64,000 bases of DNA, from positions 64,001 to 128,000 of IMG/VR virus record IMGVR_UViG_3300037840_000188. The stretch is one strand, 5' to 3'. Source of the stretch: a virus. The position numbers and the translations under genes are program-made. The stretch's first letter is position 1. The number at the start of each line of letters is the position of its first letter. Positions 3,898 to 56,454 of this stretch are shown here, one piece after another. The notes beneath the pieces were generated by a model. That model did not search any database, was not told the origin of the DNA, and was given only the letters and a program-made list of their open reading frames with translations.

Positions 3898-4119
3898 CTA
3901 GTACTTCTTCGACATGCCCCTGGACTTCTCGTGTTCCTTGTGCTCTTTCTTCTTCATGCCGATGGACTCGTGCTTGCGCCCTTCCTTCTTGTGCGCCATT
4001 TCCTTCTTCATGCCCATCGATTCGTGCTCTTCGGCTTTCTTCATCGGAGATCTCCTTTTGGATTGCCCGCTGATGTAGCGGCGGGTTGTGGTTTCGATTT
4101 GTGAGAGTTCGTCGGGGAT
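3898..4119 (-). CDS. small Lys/His/Glu-rich protein (ATG at 4044) with in-frame upstream extension resembling the MCP N-terminus
   Basis: MKKAEEHESMGMKKEMAHKK...; RBS AGGAG before 4044; upstream PDELSQIETTTRRYI. Confidence 0.7.
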   Translation of the reverse strand: MPDELSQIETTTRRYISGQSKRRSPMKKAEEHESMGMKKEMAHKKEGRKHESIGMKKKEHKEHEKSRGMSKKY

Positions 4120-4127
4120 ATGCGTGC

Positions 4128-5347: not shown

Positions 5348-6454
5348 CTACGCCACAAATCCGAACCCGGACGCATGATATCCCGGTAAGACCGATAAAT
5401 TGTGCGCTAGCAACACTTTACCGACTATTTTGGTGTTTCCAGCGCTGGGGATAAACCCATCATCATCCAGCGTCCCGTTGAACGGCGCATTCTTCGAAAT
5501 GCGGTACTTGATGTTCGGCTTGCGGGCGTTCAGGAACCAGATCGATTCGCCGCCCTGAAGGTTGCCGGACGGATACGCGGTCACCGCGCCGCCAGTGGTG
5601 TAAGACAGGTACCTGGTCGCCACGCGGTCGTTGGTGCCGCCGCTGGCTGTCAGGTAGGAGCCGGGAGCGTAACGAGAAGCCAGGATCACCGCACCGTTGT
5701 ATTCGAGGCCACGGAAACCGCCCTTGGCGATAGTGACGTTCTGGAAGCGCTGCTGAGTCTGATAGTTCGAACGAATGTAGCCCTGACCCTTGGCAGTTGT
5801 CAGGATGATGTTGGGCTCGTACTCGCCAGAACCATAGTTGACCGACTGGTACATGTTCTCCATCACCGGGAGGGTGATGTTCGCACCGGCGAAGTTGACG
5901 GGCGCGGGAGCCAGCATACGGCCACCATACAGCGAGCGAGTCAGGGTGCCATAGATCGGATAGGCCGAACCGTCCCAGCCGGGCGTCACGCCGTCAGAGA
6001 GGGCTTCATCGAGGCCGTTGATGACCTTGACATACGCGCCAGTCTGGCCCTGGAGATAGAGCTGGAGTGCGGTCTGCGCGCCGAGTTGCATGTAGGCGGA
6101 GTCCACGCGCTCTTCGACGAGCTTGATTACCGCGAGCGGCCCGTTGTTCAGCACCTTGATGTCTTCCTTGTAGAAGGGGATCATCACGGTCTGGTACTTC
6201 GGATCGAAGCGCAACTGCTGCTCGATCTGGCGCTGGTCGGCAGGCAGATCCTGACCCTTCGAGTACGAACCGCCATCCTGGACGTCATACTCGATGTTGT
6301 CGTTCCACGAAGAGCCGCCCTCGACCTCATCGAGACAGTTCTCGTCGAGGAAGGACATGAGCGGATCTTTATTGAATACGAGATCACGGAGCTTTGGCTG
6401 TTCGTCGATGTAGCGGCGAGTCGTGACTTCGATTTGCGAAAGAGTGTCAGGCGT
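5348..6454 (-). CDS. major capsid protein (probable ACG start at 6454; first ATG at 6358)
   Basis: Follows scaffold; ~368 aa; open frame extends 32 codons upstream of the ATG as (M)PDTLSQIEVTTRRYIDEQPKLRDLVFNKDPL. Confidence 0.8.
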   Translation of the reverse strand, partial: TPDTLSQIEVTTRRYIDEQPKLRDLVFNKDPLMSFLDENCLDEVEGGSSWNDNIEYDVQDGGSYSKGQDLPADQRQIEQQLRFDPKYQTVMIPFYKEDIKVLNNGPLAVIKLVEERVDSAYMQLGAQTALQLYLQGQTGAYVKVINGLDEALSDGVTPGWDGSAYPIYGTLTRSLYGGRMLAPAPVNFAGANITLPVMENMYQSVNYGSGEYEPNIILTTAKGQGYIRSNYQTQQRFQNVTIAKGGFRGLEYNGAVILASRYAPGSYLTASGGTNDRVATRYLSYTTGGAVTAYPSGNLQGGESIWFLNARKPNIKYRISKNAPFNGTLDDDGFIPSAGNTKIVGKVLLAHNLSVLPGYHASGFGFVA

Positions 6455-6486
6455 ATAGGTACCCTACCTTTGCTAGCTTAAATTCG

Positions 6487-9404: not shown

Positions 9405-9851
9405 ATGAATCTGTCCCGTCGCGGATTTCTCGGTGGTGCTATTGCCGCTATCACCCTGCGGATACTCCCATCGCCGCTCGCCGCTCGCGAGCCACGCAAA
9501 TGGATCTGGCTGCAATTCCACACAGGATTTGATCCGAACTGTACGAGGGCTTGGGCGCGATGGGCCGCATGTCGCTCAGATGGCGTTTACTTTACTACCG
9601 CCGGGCCGATATTCCTTGAAGACGTAGGCACGTCCAGCATGGAATCTTCACCGGCGGTCCTTGCCGTAAAGCAGCAGACCCGCATTCTCCTGAATGAATT
9701 CCTCGATTCTCGCTGTGACTGCCATCCTGGCTATTGGTGCCAGATTCACGAGCACATGAGGCCGAAGGATTTTTCTGGATATATTCCGGACGATGAAGAT
9801 GAGGATGAGGAAGATACGCCTACAGCGATTTATGAGGTAGTCTCCGGATGA
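9405..9851 (+). CDS. hypothetical protein with twin-arginine signal-like N-terminus
   Basis: MNLSRRGFLGGAIAA; RBS GGAGG. Confidence 0.65.
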   Translation: MNLSRRGFLGGAIAAITLRILPSPLAAREPRKWIWLQFHTGFDPNCTRAWARWAACRSDGVYFTTAGPIFLEDVGTSSMESSPAVLAVKQQTRILLNEFLDSRCDCHPGYWCQIHEHMRPKDFSGYIPDDEDEDEEDTPTAIYEVVSG

Positions 9852-17503: not shown

Positions 17504-18097
17504 TCAGCGCGAGCGCGGCTTGGCAGTTATTTTTCGCAAATCATTCAAGCGCTCGACGAGCGCCTCGTTAGCCAGGTAAGTCTTGTAATTTATCTCATCC
17601 GGCTGATTTAGATAATGCATATCCGAGGAAACACGACCATATTCGGATGAGGCTATCCACGCCGAATATTCCATGCTCCCCCGAAGCTTATTACAGCGAC
17701 GGCAGGCGCTAACTAGATTGTCCTCAGCCGTCGCCCCACCATCCTCCCAGAGAATTACGTGATCCACCGTTAATGGCTTTTCTTGACCACAGTACCTACA
17801 CCGAAAGTGATCTCTCCGAAAGACATTCCAGCTGACGAACTGATCTATCTGCCGCTGGCTCTTTCGAAGAATCGCCTTTCCCGGCCCTCGCACATCGAGC
17901 ACGTCGGACTGATTCAGGAAGCGCTCCCACTGAGCGGTGTCCATCACGAGCAGTTCGTGCTCGCCCGCGAGGTCTTCGTCTGGTAACGGGACGAGATACA
18001 CTTTCCCGTTACCAGTCCAGATCGCACCGCCGAGTTGAATCGTGTGGCCGACTTCGAGGATGTCGAGGTCGGCTAACGTCACCTGAGTGGCGGTCAT
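17504..18097 (-). CDS. HNH endonuclease (McrA-like core) coupled to TROVE gene
   Basis: RDHFRCRYCG..LTVDHV....GG...DNLVSACRRCN; ATGA overlap. Confidence 0.85.
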   Translation of the reverse strand: MTATQVTLADLDILEVGHTIQLGGAIWTGNGKVYLVPLPDEDLAGEHELLVMDTAQWERFLNQSDVLDVRGPGKAILRKSQRQIDQFVSWNVFRRDHFRCRYCGQEKPLTVDHVILWEDGGATAEDNLVSACRRCNKLRGSMEYSAWIASSEYGRVSSDMHYLNQPDEINYKTYLANEALVERLNDLRKITAKPRSR

Positions 18098-21644: not shown

Positions 21645-22562
21645 TTAATCGTCAGACCAGTCGTCCACCGCCGCTGCCCAAGCCTCGCGATACGACTTTT
21701 GCTCGCCGCTCATCGTTGGAGCTAGGTGCTGCCAGTCTACATCGAGTCGCTCTGTGACAGGCTCGTCAGTTCGCTCTGGATTATCTGTCCAGCGATGACC
21801 AGCCCAGAATGCCAGGTTACAGGCCCGGAGGCGATCATCGTGGATTCCATAAGCACCACGAGCAGTCATTCTTTGCATGTCAACAACGGCATTAGCGTAC
21901 TCATCTACAGCCCACGGCGACATTAATTTCACCCTGCGAGACATCAGGTGCATGCGTGCCCTGGTCCACAGAATTCTCGTGCTCCTTGGCGTCGCCTGCC
22001 AGCCTATAACGTTCGTGTCTTCCGCGACGGTGTTGGCAAACTGCTGCCACATCCACATATTCCCGTACCCAAGTCGGATTAATTCCTGCGTCATTAGGGG
22101 ACCGGGGCCGGGGTATGACTCGTATATAAACTCGCACTGATCCCCTTCTTCTCCCGCGTACATGCGCCCCATGACATTGGCTACTTTTGCCAGCTCTGCA
22201 GCATCAACAGGAGCCGCGAACTCGGCCACCTGAAGATCCCGCATGACAAACGCTTGTGTGCCCGTAGCCTTGTCGATGACCGGCTTATTATTCTTGAATA
22301 GCGGCATCTTTATGGCATTCGGTCGGAAAATTTCGATCACGCCGTTATCGGTCTTATAGTCATCTTCGCGACGAGACCCTCGGCTCCAGTTCGTAATCCC
22401 CTCGGACGGGTCCGCCGCCATTATGTATTTGGCCCAATGTTTTGGCTCTTCCCAGACGAGCAGTAATCCCCTGGGGTCACCATTGACAGACTCGTCGGCT
22501 TCGCCAGTTCGCAAGAAGGAACTTCCAGATACGTGGAAGGCGGATTGGAATTCGTCGTTCAC
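21645..22562 (-). CDS. terL: terminase large subunit, nuclease half
   Basis: VWEEP...YIMAADPSEG, QVAEF, HDDRLRA RNase H-like motifs; in frame with ATPase half across one TAG. Confidence 0.85.
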   Translation of the reverse strand: MNDEFQSAFHVSGSSFLRTGEADESVNGDPRGLLLVWEEPKHWAKYIMAADPSEGITNWSRGSRREDDYKTDNGVIEIFRPNAIKMPLFKNNKPVIDKATGTQAFVMRDLQVAEFAAPVDAAELAKVANVMGRMYAGEEGDQCEFIYESYPGPGPLMTQELIRLGYGNMWMWQQFANTVAEDTNVIGWQATPRSTRILWTRARMHLMSRRVKLMSPWAVDEYANAVVDMQRMTARGAYGIHDDRLRACNLAFWAGHRWTDNPERTDEPVTERLDVDWQHLAPTMSGEQKSYREAWAAAVDDWSDD

Positions 22563-22568
22563 AATATC

Positions 22569-23825
22569 CTAGTTTACCGACAACTCATACTCATAACAGG
22601 CCCCTGGATTCATGCACTCGTTAGTTAGCTGCTCGATAAGCTCTGGCGACAAGGCCCCTTTATGTGGCGATTGAAAGGTCTCTCCGGGATCAGCCCCAAA
22701 ATTGGTCAGAAACTCTGGCAACTCTCCGTTACTTACATGCTCTGCCCGCGTGGACTCCCACCAATAAAGCTGCTCGCGAGTCGGTCGATATGTAATGCCA
22801 TCATTGAACTCCGGCGAAGTGCGCTCGATCTTCTCGGCGTGCTTACGTGTATGCTCTTCCGGAACCCAATCATCTGGCGCAATGGCTCGATATTTGGTTT
22901 TGTTATACCACCACGGAACGAAGCAATAAATCCAGTCCTCGTAACCTCGACGGTGCCACCTCGCTCCCTCCGAAGACTCATGCCAATAATTCCCCTTACC
23001 GTCAGACGTAGATTCCTGCACGTGGAGGGTCGTGATGGCTTTTGGAATCGAAGGAACGAAGCTGAACCTTATTTTTCCAGGCTGCTTGAATAACGCGACC
23101 TCAGTGAGGTGCGAAATATCGTTCTGCGTACCCGTGCCAAAGCCAGTTTCCGAATTCTCCGCCTGATAGCTGATACGACTTGATATCGGATCTTCAAATC
23201 CCAGTTCCGCATTCTGTTTGTCAGGATAAATGTTAGGCTTTAACCACCAGGCGAGCTTATCGAGAAAGAGATGATCACGAGCAAAAACTTCCGAAATGCG
23301 CTGATCGTCGAGAGTCGCGAACAGGCCGCGCACTGGATACCAGAAAAGCATCCGATGCCACATCATGCCGCGCACTGTCGCTGTTGCGGCGACCTGGCGA
23401 ACCTTGTGGATGTACGCCTTAATGCCTGTCGTGAACTTATACTTGCGCTGCTCTTCGTGGCACTCTACCTCGCGCTTGCCAAAAAGTTTGATATATCGAT
23501 GCTGAGATTCAAGCAGCATTGGCGGTCCGATACCGCTGCCACGCCCGACGCCGGGGTCGATTTCCAGATTGAAATATCTCGAAAAAAAATACTCGAAGTC
23601 TACCTTGCATAACAGGCGCTCACTATCCAGAAATTCTTCTTCCTCGCGGTTTAGTGGCCTGATTAATTGCCCCTGCGGTAGGAGCTTTCTTGTTTTCGGA
23701 TCGCGAATCAGCGTCTCTAGGTGCGTAGAAAATTCAATCGAACGGTCGCGGCTCTGGCGCTGGAATTTGAGACCAGCCTTTTTGGCCTTGTGTAAACGCT
23801 GGGCGATTATTTCCTGACTGTACGT
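22569..23825 (-). CDS. terL: terminase large subunit, ATPase half (probable ACG start at 23825)
   Basis: HKVRQVAAT Walker A-like, HLTEVA Walker B, ESTSDG coupling motif, FVPWW; frame open 102 codons upstream of first ATG with RBS GGAGA. Confidence 0.8.
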   Translation of the reverse strand, partial: TYSQEIIAQRLHKAKKAGLKFQRQSRDRSIEFSTHLETLIRDPKTRKLLPQGQLIRPLNREEEEFLDSERLLCKVDFEYFFSRYFNLEIDPGVGRGSGIGPPMLLESQHRYIKLFGKREVECHEEQRKYKFTTGIKAYIHKVRQVAATATVRGMMWHRMLFWYPVRGLFATLDDQRISEVFARDHLFLDKLAWWLKPNIYPDKQNAELGFEDPISSRISYQAENSETGFGTGTQNDISHLTEVALFKQPGKIRFSFVPSIPKAITTLHVQESTSDGKGNYWHESSEGARWHRRGYEDWIYCFVPWWYNKTKYRAIAPDDWVPEEHTRKHAEKIERTSPEFNDGITYRPTREQLYWWESTRAEHVSNGELPEFLTNFGADPGETFQSPHKGALSPELIEQLTNECMNPGACYEYELSVN

Positions 23826-24016
23826 AGCCGATTCTCCTGTGCCATCCCGACGCGCTCTGTATAACCCTGCCTGCTCTGCGCCTCGGTAGCCTTACGATAC
23901 TCCGCAGCATCCCGAGCCGTCCACTGCCTGTTACCGATGGCGCGCAGGGCGACTACGTTGTCAGTGGGACCGTCGCCGAAGAGGCGGAATTTTTTGGAGA
24001 GGATGGGTTCTGTCAT
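23807..24016 (-). CDS. hypothetical protein
   Basis: ORF track; overlaps TerL start. Confidence 0.5.
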   Translation of the reverse strand: MTEPILSKKFRLFGDGPTDNVVALRAIGNRQWTARDAAEYRKATEAQSRQGYTERVGMAQENRLRTVRK

Positions 24017-24095
24017 ACCGTGTTAAGCTAAGGGCTGACCGCCCAGTGCGTCAAACACTGAACGGCCAGCAAACGACCACGGGAGGGTCGCCGCA

Positions 24096-24710
24096 TTGCC
24101 CAACTTAAAGCCTACCGCACTTGAACGCCTGATGGCGAAAGTAATCGTACTGCCGAATGGATGCTGGCAGTGGACGGGCTCGCTGGATGATTGTGGATAT
24201 GGATTCTTTCGAATGGATCGAGGGGTAATGTGGCGAGCGCATCGTGCGTCGTATGTCCTGCGAAATGGACCAATCCTAAAAGGAGCGGAATTGGATCACT
24301 CGTGCCATGATCCTAAATTATGCAAGCTGGGGAATAAATGCCCTCATCGAGCGTGCGTAAATCCTGAACATATGGTCGTTTCAACTCACGCTAATAATTG
24401 TTCTCGCGAGCGAGCTAATAATGGCATGGAGGCAGCCCATGCCGCACAGAGAGCAAGGACACACTGCAAGCATGGTCACGAATTTACTCCGGAAAATACG
24501 TATAAAACAAAGAGCGGAAGAAGTTGCAGGCTATGTACATTGCTGAGTATGAGGGTAAAGCCACAGTTGAAATTAGAATGCATCCGTGGCCATATACTCA
24601 CCCCAGATAATCGATGCGGGAAAAGATCTAACTCATGCAAAATGTGCAGAAAGGAGCAGCTACACGCTAACTACATAGCGAGAAAAAATAAACATCAAGA
24701 CCTGATCTGA
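24096..24710 (+). CDS. HNH endonuclease with C-terminal Cys/His repeats
   Basis: CWQWTG...GYG...AHRASY...DHSC...CVNPEH; THCKHGHEFTPENT. Confidence 0.9.
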   Translation: MPNLKPTALERLMAKVIVLPNGCWQWTGSLDDCGYGFFRMDRGVMWRAHRASYVLRNGPILKGAELDHSCHDPKLCKLGNKCPHRACVNPEHMVVSTHANNCSRERANNGMEAAHAAQRARTHCKHGHEFTPENTYKTKSGRSCRLCTLLSMRVKPQLKLECIRGHILTPDNRCGKRSNSCKMCRKEQLHANYIARKNKHQDLI

Positions 24711-55549: not shown

Positions 55550-56454
55550 GCGATGAGTTCCCTATACTCCATCTTCTCGGTCTGTACCAACCGCGTGAGC
55601 GTGTCACGGAACAGGAACGGATTCTCCCGGTTGTTGAAACGAAACTCAAACTCTTCAAGGTAACGATCCAAATGCTTCGCGCTCACCTGATGATAGGAAC
55701 CGACGATAGACCGTTTGAACAGCGACCATGCGCCCTCGATGCCGTTCGTGTGAACGTCTCCCCTGACCCATTCTTCCGCGCTGTGGTTCACGCTGTGGTG
55801 CTCGGTGTCTGCGTCCGCGATCCCCGAGTATCCGGGGTTGTCATCAGTGACAATGCGCGATGTATCCGGCTTCGTGGTTTCCGCTACGAAGGCGTGCAGG
55901 GCTTTCTTGTTGCCCCGCTTCTTTTGCTTCTCGACGCGCAGCCGAATCTGTCCGCCGCGTTCGAGCGCCCCGAGGACCATTGTTTTGTTGTCGAGGTTCC
56001 CGCTGCCTACGTGCCGCTTGTGTCCGCCTACATAGGTTTCGTCCATCTCAACCGTTTTACCGATCCCGCCGATCTTGGTAGGACTCACTTCGGTCATAGC
56101 CTTGCGGATGCGATGACAGAGGTACCAAGCGGTCTTATAGGCCACTTTGATCGACCGGCCCAACTGATTAGCAGAGATGCCTTTCTTTCCCTCGCACATC
56201 AGATACACAGCAAGAAACCACTTCCAGAGCGGAAGGTGAGTGTCATTGAAGATCGTACCGGCGGTTACGGAGAACTGGTAGCGGCATGAGTCACAGTCAT
56301 ACACTCCGCGTTCTGCGATGCGGGAGACCGTCGTCTTGCCCGGGCAACGCGGGCAACGCGCGCCAGTGGGCCAGCGCAGCAACTCCAGGTATTCACGGCA
56401 GGCATCATCATTACCGCCAAACTGTTCAACTAGAGCGACAAGGTTAGTTTCCAT
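55546..56454 (-). CDS. IS1595-family DDE transposase
   Basis: CPRC, VEMDETYVGG, IVTDD, HTNGIEGAWSLFKR, FRFN. Confidence 0.95.
   Translation of the reverse strand: METNLVALVEQFGGNDDACREYLELLRWPTGARCPRCPGKTTVSRIAERGVYDCDSCRYQFSVTAGTIFNDTHLPLWKWFLAVYLMCEGKKGISANQLGRSIKVAYKTAWYLCHRIRKAMTEVSPTKIGGIGKTVEMDETYVGGHKRHVGSGNLDNKTMVLGALERGGQIRLRVEKQKKRGNKKALHAFVAETTKPDTSRIVTDDNPGYSGIADADTEHHSVNHSAEEWVRGDVHTNGIEGAWSLFKRSIVGSYHQVSAKHLDRYLEEFEFRFNNRENPFLFRDTLTRLVQTEKMEYRELIA

Follow-up and report, generated by a model that had tools for sequence, protein, structure and literature searches.

A probable ACG initiation codon, recurring among relatives, in the terminase ATPase gene of an uncultured phage

Where does translation of a phage gene begin when its reading frame holds no ATG, GTG or TTG ahead of a long and conserved N-terminal region? 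The question is raised by the terminase large-subunit ATPase gene of an uncultured phage, which lies on the minus strand of the window, the 64,000-nucleotide stretch of DNA analysed here (bases 64001-128000 of the 140,995-bp IMG/VR phage record IMGVR_UViG_3300037840_000188). An earlier interpretation of the same DNA, the sequence-only reading, had proposed that this gene initiates at ACG, and had placed the terminase frame, a GGAG element, the ACG followed by TAC AGT CAG, and an upstream in-frame TAA. All of these were found as described on the minus strand (Table 1), and position 23824, the base singled out by that reading, is the middle C of the ACG. Our analysis makes it quite probable that the ACG at 23825-23823 is the real, inherited start of the terminase gene, most likely decoded as (f)Met by the host initiator tRNA.

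The anatomy of the locus frames the problem. The count of 102 open codons before the first ATG, with no canonical start back to the TAA, was confirmed: not one ATG, GTG or TTG occurs in the terminase frame from the TAA (23894-23892) to the ATG at 23519, which is codon 103 counting from the ACG. The 8 nt between GGAG and ACG read AATCGGCT (minus strand), and translation from the ACG gives (T/M)YSQEIIAQRL...LCKVDFEYFFSRYFNL. The initiation region is predicted to fold more weakly than 194 of 200 shuffled versions (folding z-score +1.75). With the codon usage of this genome, a run of 101 terminase codons free of ATG, GTG and TTG has a probability of about 0.008, a value that is biased, as the gap itself drew attention to the locus; the same stretch carries one to nine such in-frame codons in 22 orthologues. 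Competing internal starts may have been purged from codons 2-102, although this observation too is biased by how the finding arose. In a coding-potential survey of the whole genome (141 kb), a long, strongly coding 5′ stretch without a canonical start was found in two genes only, those for the terminase and the capsid protein.

Table 1. Positions of the terminase and capsid features in the window
Feature	Position	Strand	Remarks
Proposed terminase ATPase initiation codon, ACG	23823..23825	-	Preceded by T at 23826; aligned with orthologue starts
Shine-Dalgarno-like GGAG	23834..23837	-	8 nt 5′ of the terminase ACG
Terminase large-subunit ATPase-domain gene	22569..23825	-	418 codons plus TAG stop at 22571-22569
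Terminase codons 2-102, conserved N-terminal region	23520..23822	-	Lost by gene callers that start at the first ATG
First canonical terminase start, ATG (Met103)	23517..23519	-	No Shine-Dalgarno sequence; Ile in L090
In-frame TAA closing the terminase frame upstream	23892..23894	-	Nearest upstream stop to the ACG
up69, upstream ORF of 69 codons	23807..24016	-	19-nt overlap with the terminase start
Second terminase gene, presumed nuclease part	21645..22562	-	305 codons; GTG start; same frame after the TAG
Major capsid gene	5348..6454	-	ACG start at 6454-6452; PHROG 9953 major head protein, E 5e-13
Leader motif AGGGTACCTAT	6455..6465	-	Abuts the capsid ACG; common to other ACG/CTG capsid leaders and the L205 terminase leader

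The terminase product and its split gene

An AlphaFold2 model of the terminase ATPase product, built on 45 orthologues, had a mean pLDDT of 91.6, with values of 95-98 over residues 1-90 and a dip to 86 at residues 91-100. The top Foldseek match of the model was the ATPase domain of T4 gp17 (E 2e-12, TM 0.56/0.64), with further matches to the terminases of T7, P74-26, HK97, D6E and Sf6. The predicted structure identifies the gene product as a T4 gp17-like large-terminase ATPase domain, with the ASCE ATPase fold of phage packaging motors. PHROG 5989 (terminase large subunit) matched the product weakly (E 0.0038), and searches of the product against Pfam and against PDB sequences returned no match. 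Residues Y2, E69, D76 and Y79 are invariant across the 45 terminase sequences, as are E242 and the K141, R143 and Q144 of the stretch KVRQVAATAT, from which the classic GK[ST] of Walker A is absent.

The sequence-only reading had called the product the large terminase subunit, which holds for the ATPase part and not for a complete subunit, the terminase being divided between two genes. The frame stops at the TAG, the ATPase protein lacks a C-terminal RNase H-like nuclease domain, and the second terminase gene has orthologues (46-72% identical) downstream of the ATPase gene in relatives. The split is kept in relatives with TAA, TGA or TAG at the junction, with shifted frames (a TAATG overlap) or with three small genes inserted, and in the distant relatives L066 and L068 the terminase frame is continuous as a single ORF of 675-711 aa. 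These varied junctions and single-ORF relatives together mean that the terminase is a genuine two-gene split, and not a case of amber readthrough or TAG recoding. Recoding was also rejected because reading TAG as Gln extends few frames in the genome and because the split carries TAA or TGA in orthologues.

The start codon among terminase relatives

We gathered 44 distinct terminase orthologues from viral and metagenome contigs, making 45 sequences with that of the window. A survey of orthologue start codons had been put forward by the sequence-only reading: the codon aligned with the window ACG is ATG in 25 of the 44, and a different codon in the other 19 (GTG 12, TTG 6, CTG 1). Tyr directly after the aligned start is invariant in all 44 and is kept in the window, and 34 orthologues have no alternative in-frame start upstream of the aligned codon. 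Weak start codons are a general habit of this terminase family. The closest orthologue (L090, 89% identical) has a TTG start, and its GAGG is as far from that codon as the GGAG of the window is from the ACG. Between these two genes, amino-acid identity is 87% over codons 2-102 and 89% over the rest of the protein, while synonymous sites are saturated; the N-terminal stretch has therefore been kept under protein-level selection, and no frame decay is visible in the window gene. The evidence that we regard as decisive for the putative ACG start is comparative, namely its codon-for-codon alignment with the starts of the orthologues.

Translation might alternatively begin downstream, at the near-cognate codons ATA (23810) and ATC (23807), which are codons 6 and 7 of the terminase frame, or at ATG103, giving a product without 5 to 102 of the N-terminal residues. 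Both AUA and AUC outperform ACG for initiation in E. coli, an AGGA lies 1-4 nt ahead of codons 6-7, and ATC is the aligned start in three relatives. However, the spacing of that AGGA to codons 6-7 is too short, Tyr2 is invariant in the 45 sequences and retained in the window, and Met103 lacks a Shine-Dalgarno sequence and corresponds to Ile in the closest relative. Residues 1-102 are, moreover, conserved and predicted to be folded. We consider a downstream start very unlikely, and the ATG at 23519 probably does no more than encode an internal Met.

From the 5.8 billion proteins searched, 131 terminase relatives were recovered, a few of them N-terminally short, and the DNA of those short entries was examined. 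The aligned start is ACG in L203/L204 (P0003; 77% identical to the window terminase), after GAGGAGGAGTAGTT, and in L205/L206 (P0050; 62% identical), after GAGGGTACCCAC. It is ATC in L207, L209 and L211, and GTG in L208 and L210, where the gene finder had miscalled the start. Outside the window, ACG terminase starts are therefore found in two lineages and four independent assemblies (two each). In the tree, the window terminase falls within a 99%-supported clade of five, the starts of which are ACG (window), TTG, ACG, ACG and ATC, with ATG or GTG in none. Taken with the alignment of 44 orthologues, this recurrence in two lineages leaves initiation of the terminase at ACG, as originally claimed, very probable, and not an accident.

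One of these relatives also shares the local gene arrangement. In the window, the C and G of the terminase ACG are the first two bases of a CGT (Arg) codon of up69, and the up69 stop comes 16 nt past the ACG. In L212, which covers more of the L205 contig, an up69 homologue (46% identity) at positions 9639-9848 lies ahead of the ACG-start terminase gene and overlaps it by the same 19 nt. Because an ACG relative has both the upstream ORF and the overlap in common with the window, we take the terminase ACG to be old, inherited and maintained, and not an error.

The ACG could in principle have arisen as an artefact of sequencing or assembly, or as a mutation that recently disabled a now defective genome. 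This exact genome is represented by a single record, and it was not met again when viral and metagenome collections were scanned for exact patterns. Yet the same codon is ACG in the two other lineages and their four assemblies, one of them with the overlapping upstream ORF, and the frame has not visibly decayed, so that we give an error or a disabling mutation next to no weight. Bacterial genomes, scanned twice, yielded no prophage related to this phage, and megablast against phage and E. coli collections gave no match.

We regard as hardly credible that the ACG is converted to AUG by C-to-U editing of the mRNA, as in plant organelles, or that it is bypassed by a frameshift fusion of the terminase with the upstream ORF. 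Editing of ACG to AUG is established in organellar mRNAs, but a search of the phage genome for a dCMP/cytidine-deaminase domain (PF00383) found none, and a TadA-type enzyme acting at UACG would yield ICG, which is not a start codon. For a fusion, a -1 slip out of the up69 frame would indeed lead into that of the terminase. However, codon-by-codon inspection in the up69 frame found no X XXY YYZ slippery heptamer in the 85-nt overlap (23891-23807), and every orthologue starts directly at Met-Tyr, behind upstream genes of unrelated kinds.

Two HNH endonuclease genes lie in this part of the window. One, at 24096-24710 on the plus strand (PHROG 826, E 3e-42), is divergent from the up69-terminase operon and just upstream of it, and the second, at 17504-18097 on the minus strand, is located between the terminase and portal genes. 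A tie between ACG starts and HNH cassettes, as might be drawn from the mycobacteriophage Corndog, was unsupported in the terminase family, in which L212 and L203 have ACG starts without an adjacent HNH gene.

The capsid gene and its leader

For the capsid gene, 22 orthologues were aligned, and most have ATG, GTG or TTG opposite the window ACG. The non-canonical aligned starts are ACG in L017/L018 and L024, CTG in L027 and ATT in L028, and the three relatives with ACG belong to two well-separated capsid clades. Over the 19 codons that follow the ACG, the window and L024 are separated by 11 synonymous changes and no replacements (by inspection). When the same coding-potential survey was applied to the relatives G001 and G002, the capsid gene alone was flagged at comparable strength, and nothing comparable was flagged in the controls G003 and G004. 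As the sequence-only reading had observed, the terminase and capsid starts both stand in a T-ACG context, a T also preceding the capsid ACG.

A supposed third ACG gene at 4125 was rejected, being a partial copy of the capsid 5′ end; the small ORF that follows it starts independently, from a Shine-Dalgarno sequence and an ATG at 4044. The copy (window 4060-4119, minus strand) covers the first ~20 capsid codons (IPDELSQIETTTRRYI), with ATC replacing the start codon, and adjoins, on the upstream side, the small ORF, which is rich in Lys, His and Glu and has AAGGAG before its ATG. It looks like a recombination remnant.

The leaders of the ACG and CTG capsid starts have a further feature in common. 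In two capsid clades (the window, L017, L024 and L027), AGGGTAYYTAT stands directly before a capsid start that is ACG or CTG, and both the window capsid gene and the L205 terminase gene have the octamer AGGGTACC 3 nt ahead of the ACG. Counted over capsid and terminase genes of different phages, the core GGGTAYY is present in 5/8 leaders of ACG or CTG starts and in 0/66 others, which have canonical or ATC/ATT starts (Fisher P 3.5e-6, a value that ignores kinship, with about three independent origins of the motif). A conserved hairpin at the capsid ribosome-binding site was considered and rejected, as the AGGTA/TACCT pairing seen in this phage is kept in none of L017, L024 and L027. An Rfam search of window positions 23400-24200 found no known RNA element.

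The two genes together had led the sequence-only reading to propose a coordinated translational lock. Formulated as a regulated gate, this would be a programmed switch in which the ACG starts of the terminase and capsid genes (in relatives also CTG or ATC) are released when start-codon proofreading is relaxed late in infection, for example when IF3 is limiting or inhibited; an element of the leader dedicated to this role (AGGGUAYY, 3 nt, ACG) might assist. IF3 is known to gate non-AUG starts, both start-less genes belong to the morphogenesis module, and the leader motif and the presence of capsid ACG in two separate clades are in keeping with such a device. The capsid protein also demands a high output, of which plain ACG decoding would fall short.

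However, in the relative G002 the capsid gene starts at ACG and the terminase gene at ATG, and the GGGTAYY motif, with its few independent origins, is missing from the terminase leader of the window itself. A search of the phage for an IF3_C domain found none, and no tRNA gene is present in G001 or G002. With the two codons uncoupled in a relative and no phage-encoded 'key' found, the coordinated lock is not supported by our analysis, and we judge a regulated gate improbable. This phage is the one genome in which capsid and terminase ACG were seen together, the L212 and L203 contigs ending short of the capsid gene. It is similarly doubtful that a selected control device operates across this group of soil phages, in which AGGGUAYY, 3 nt and ACG would make ACG initiation efficient or conditional and so allow virion genes to sense the proofreading of start codons by the host.

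Decoding of the ACG codon and known systems

Our data are most consistent with initiation at the terminase ACG by the ordinary machinery of the host. The initiator tRNA would read the codon as (f)Met with the middle base mismatched, on ribosomes directed by the GGAG to a poorly structured initiation region. The U at position -1 could pair with A37 of the initiator tRNA as a fourth base pair, and T is found at this position in 5/6 of the ACG starts identified here. Ribosomes terminating on up69 would probably reinitiate at the nearby terminase ACG. The outcome would be a low, fixed rate of terminase synthesis, which would suit an enzyme needed in few copies and a family in which weak starts are common, in keeping with selection for low output.

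The start codons of translation table 11 exclude ACG, which is among the weakest near-cognate start codons in E. coli. Initiation at ACG in that species proceeds at ~0.1-1% of the rate at AUG, and the resulting protein mostly carries Met at its N-terminus (bioRxiv 10.1101/063800). In the model bacterial genomes that Hecht et al. surveyed, no ACG starts were annotated. The U(-1):A37 pairing with initiator tRNA has been described (PMC10018350). The account of low output meets a difficulty within this phage, as ACG is also the start of the capsid gene, whose product the phage needs in quantity. The capsid ACG fits poorly with the notion that a weak start means low expression, and hints at something further.

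The phage carries 23 tRNA genes, none of them with a CGU or suppressor anticodon, and the ACG-capsid relatives G001 and G002 carry none at all. No phage tRNA is therefore needed for ACG starts, and a suppressor or unusual initiator tRNA was rejected as a requirement. A phage S21 protein was likewise rejected, the sole S21 match being spurious and containing stop codons. One of the two tRNA-Met(CAU) genes, located outside the window at genome positions 55725-55802 (complement), has an initiator-like A1xC72 mismatch atop the acceptor stem, and its anticodon stem is without the three G-C pairs of initiator tRNAs.

The proposed start has consequences for annotation. Standard gene finders trim 102 conserved residues from the terminase and 32 residues from the capsid protein, and truncated relatives are already present in public protein collections, for example P0003 (369 aa) and P0050 (363 aa). 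The result is a distortion, for this phage group, of annotation, of protein-family models and of predicted structures. Natural ACG initiation in bacterial systems is, in addition, barely documented, with a single phage case. The terminase family, with several independent ACG starts and canonical sister alleles, represents a comparative set for bacterial ACG initiation, in which it can be asked if the codon is compensated for by its leader context, by a U at -1 or by coupling to an upstream ORF.

Among known systems, adeno-associated virus (AAV) VP2 and Sendai virus C′ are viral structural proteins whose quantity is set by the reading of ACG by initiator tRNA. Those examples depend on eukaryotic scanning and leaky initiation, whereas initiation here would be of the bacterial, Shine-Dalgarno-directed kind. 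The near-cognate starts of bacteria, such as the AUU of infC and the CUG, AUA and AUC of table 11, resemble the present case in that a weak start lies behind a normal Shine-Dalgarno sequence, with a low or IF3-sensitive rate of initiation and with orthologues that have canonical codons at the same position. In contrast to infC-type starts, ACG is not part of table 11 and no autoregulatory loop is evident here. As for the product, T4 gp17 has the same ATPase-domain fold and its gene likewise belongs to a head-morphogenesis module; it differs in that here the ATPase and C-terminal parts are separate genes, GK[ST] of Walker A is not seen and identity is ~12%.

The nearest precedent is the tape-measure gene of mycobacteriophage Corndog (Cluster O), which has ACG where sister phages have ATG and no canonical start upstream (PMC4351075). 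Peptides detected by LC-MS/MS begin right after that ACG, and expression is not obviously reduced (PMC4351075). Both cases concern a phage late gene with ACG at the position of a canonical start in relatives. They differ in that the Corndog case involves a tape-measure gene, a Mycobacterium host, a single lineage and an HNH insertion by the site, and ribosome bypass was kept as an alternative by its authors (PMC4351075). The putative ACG start described here recurs in several lineages and in two genes. Overall, the terminase ACG is a comparatively well-supported example of a rare and already known kind of start, rather than a new kind.
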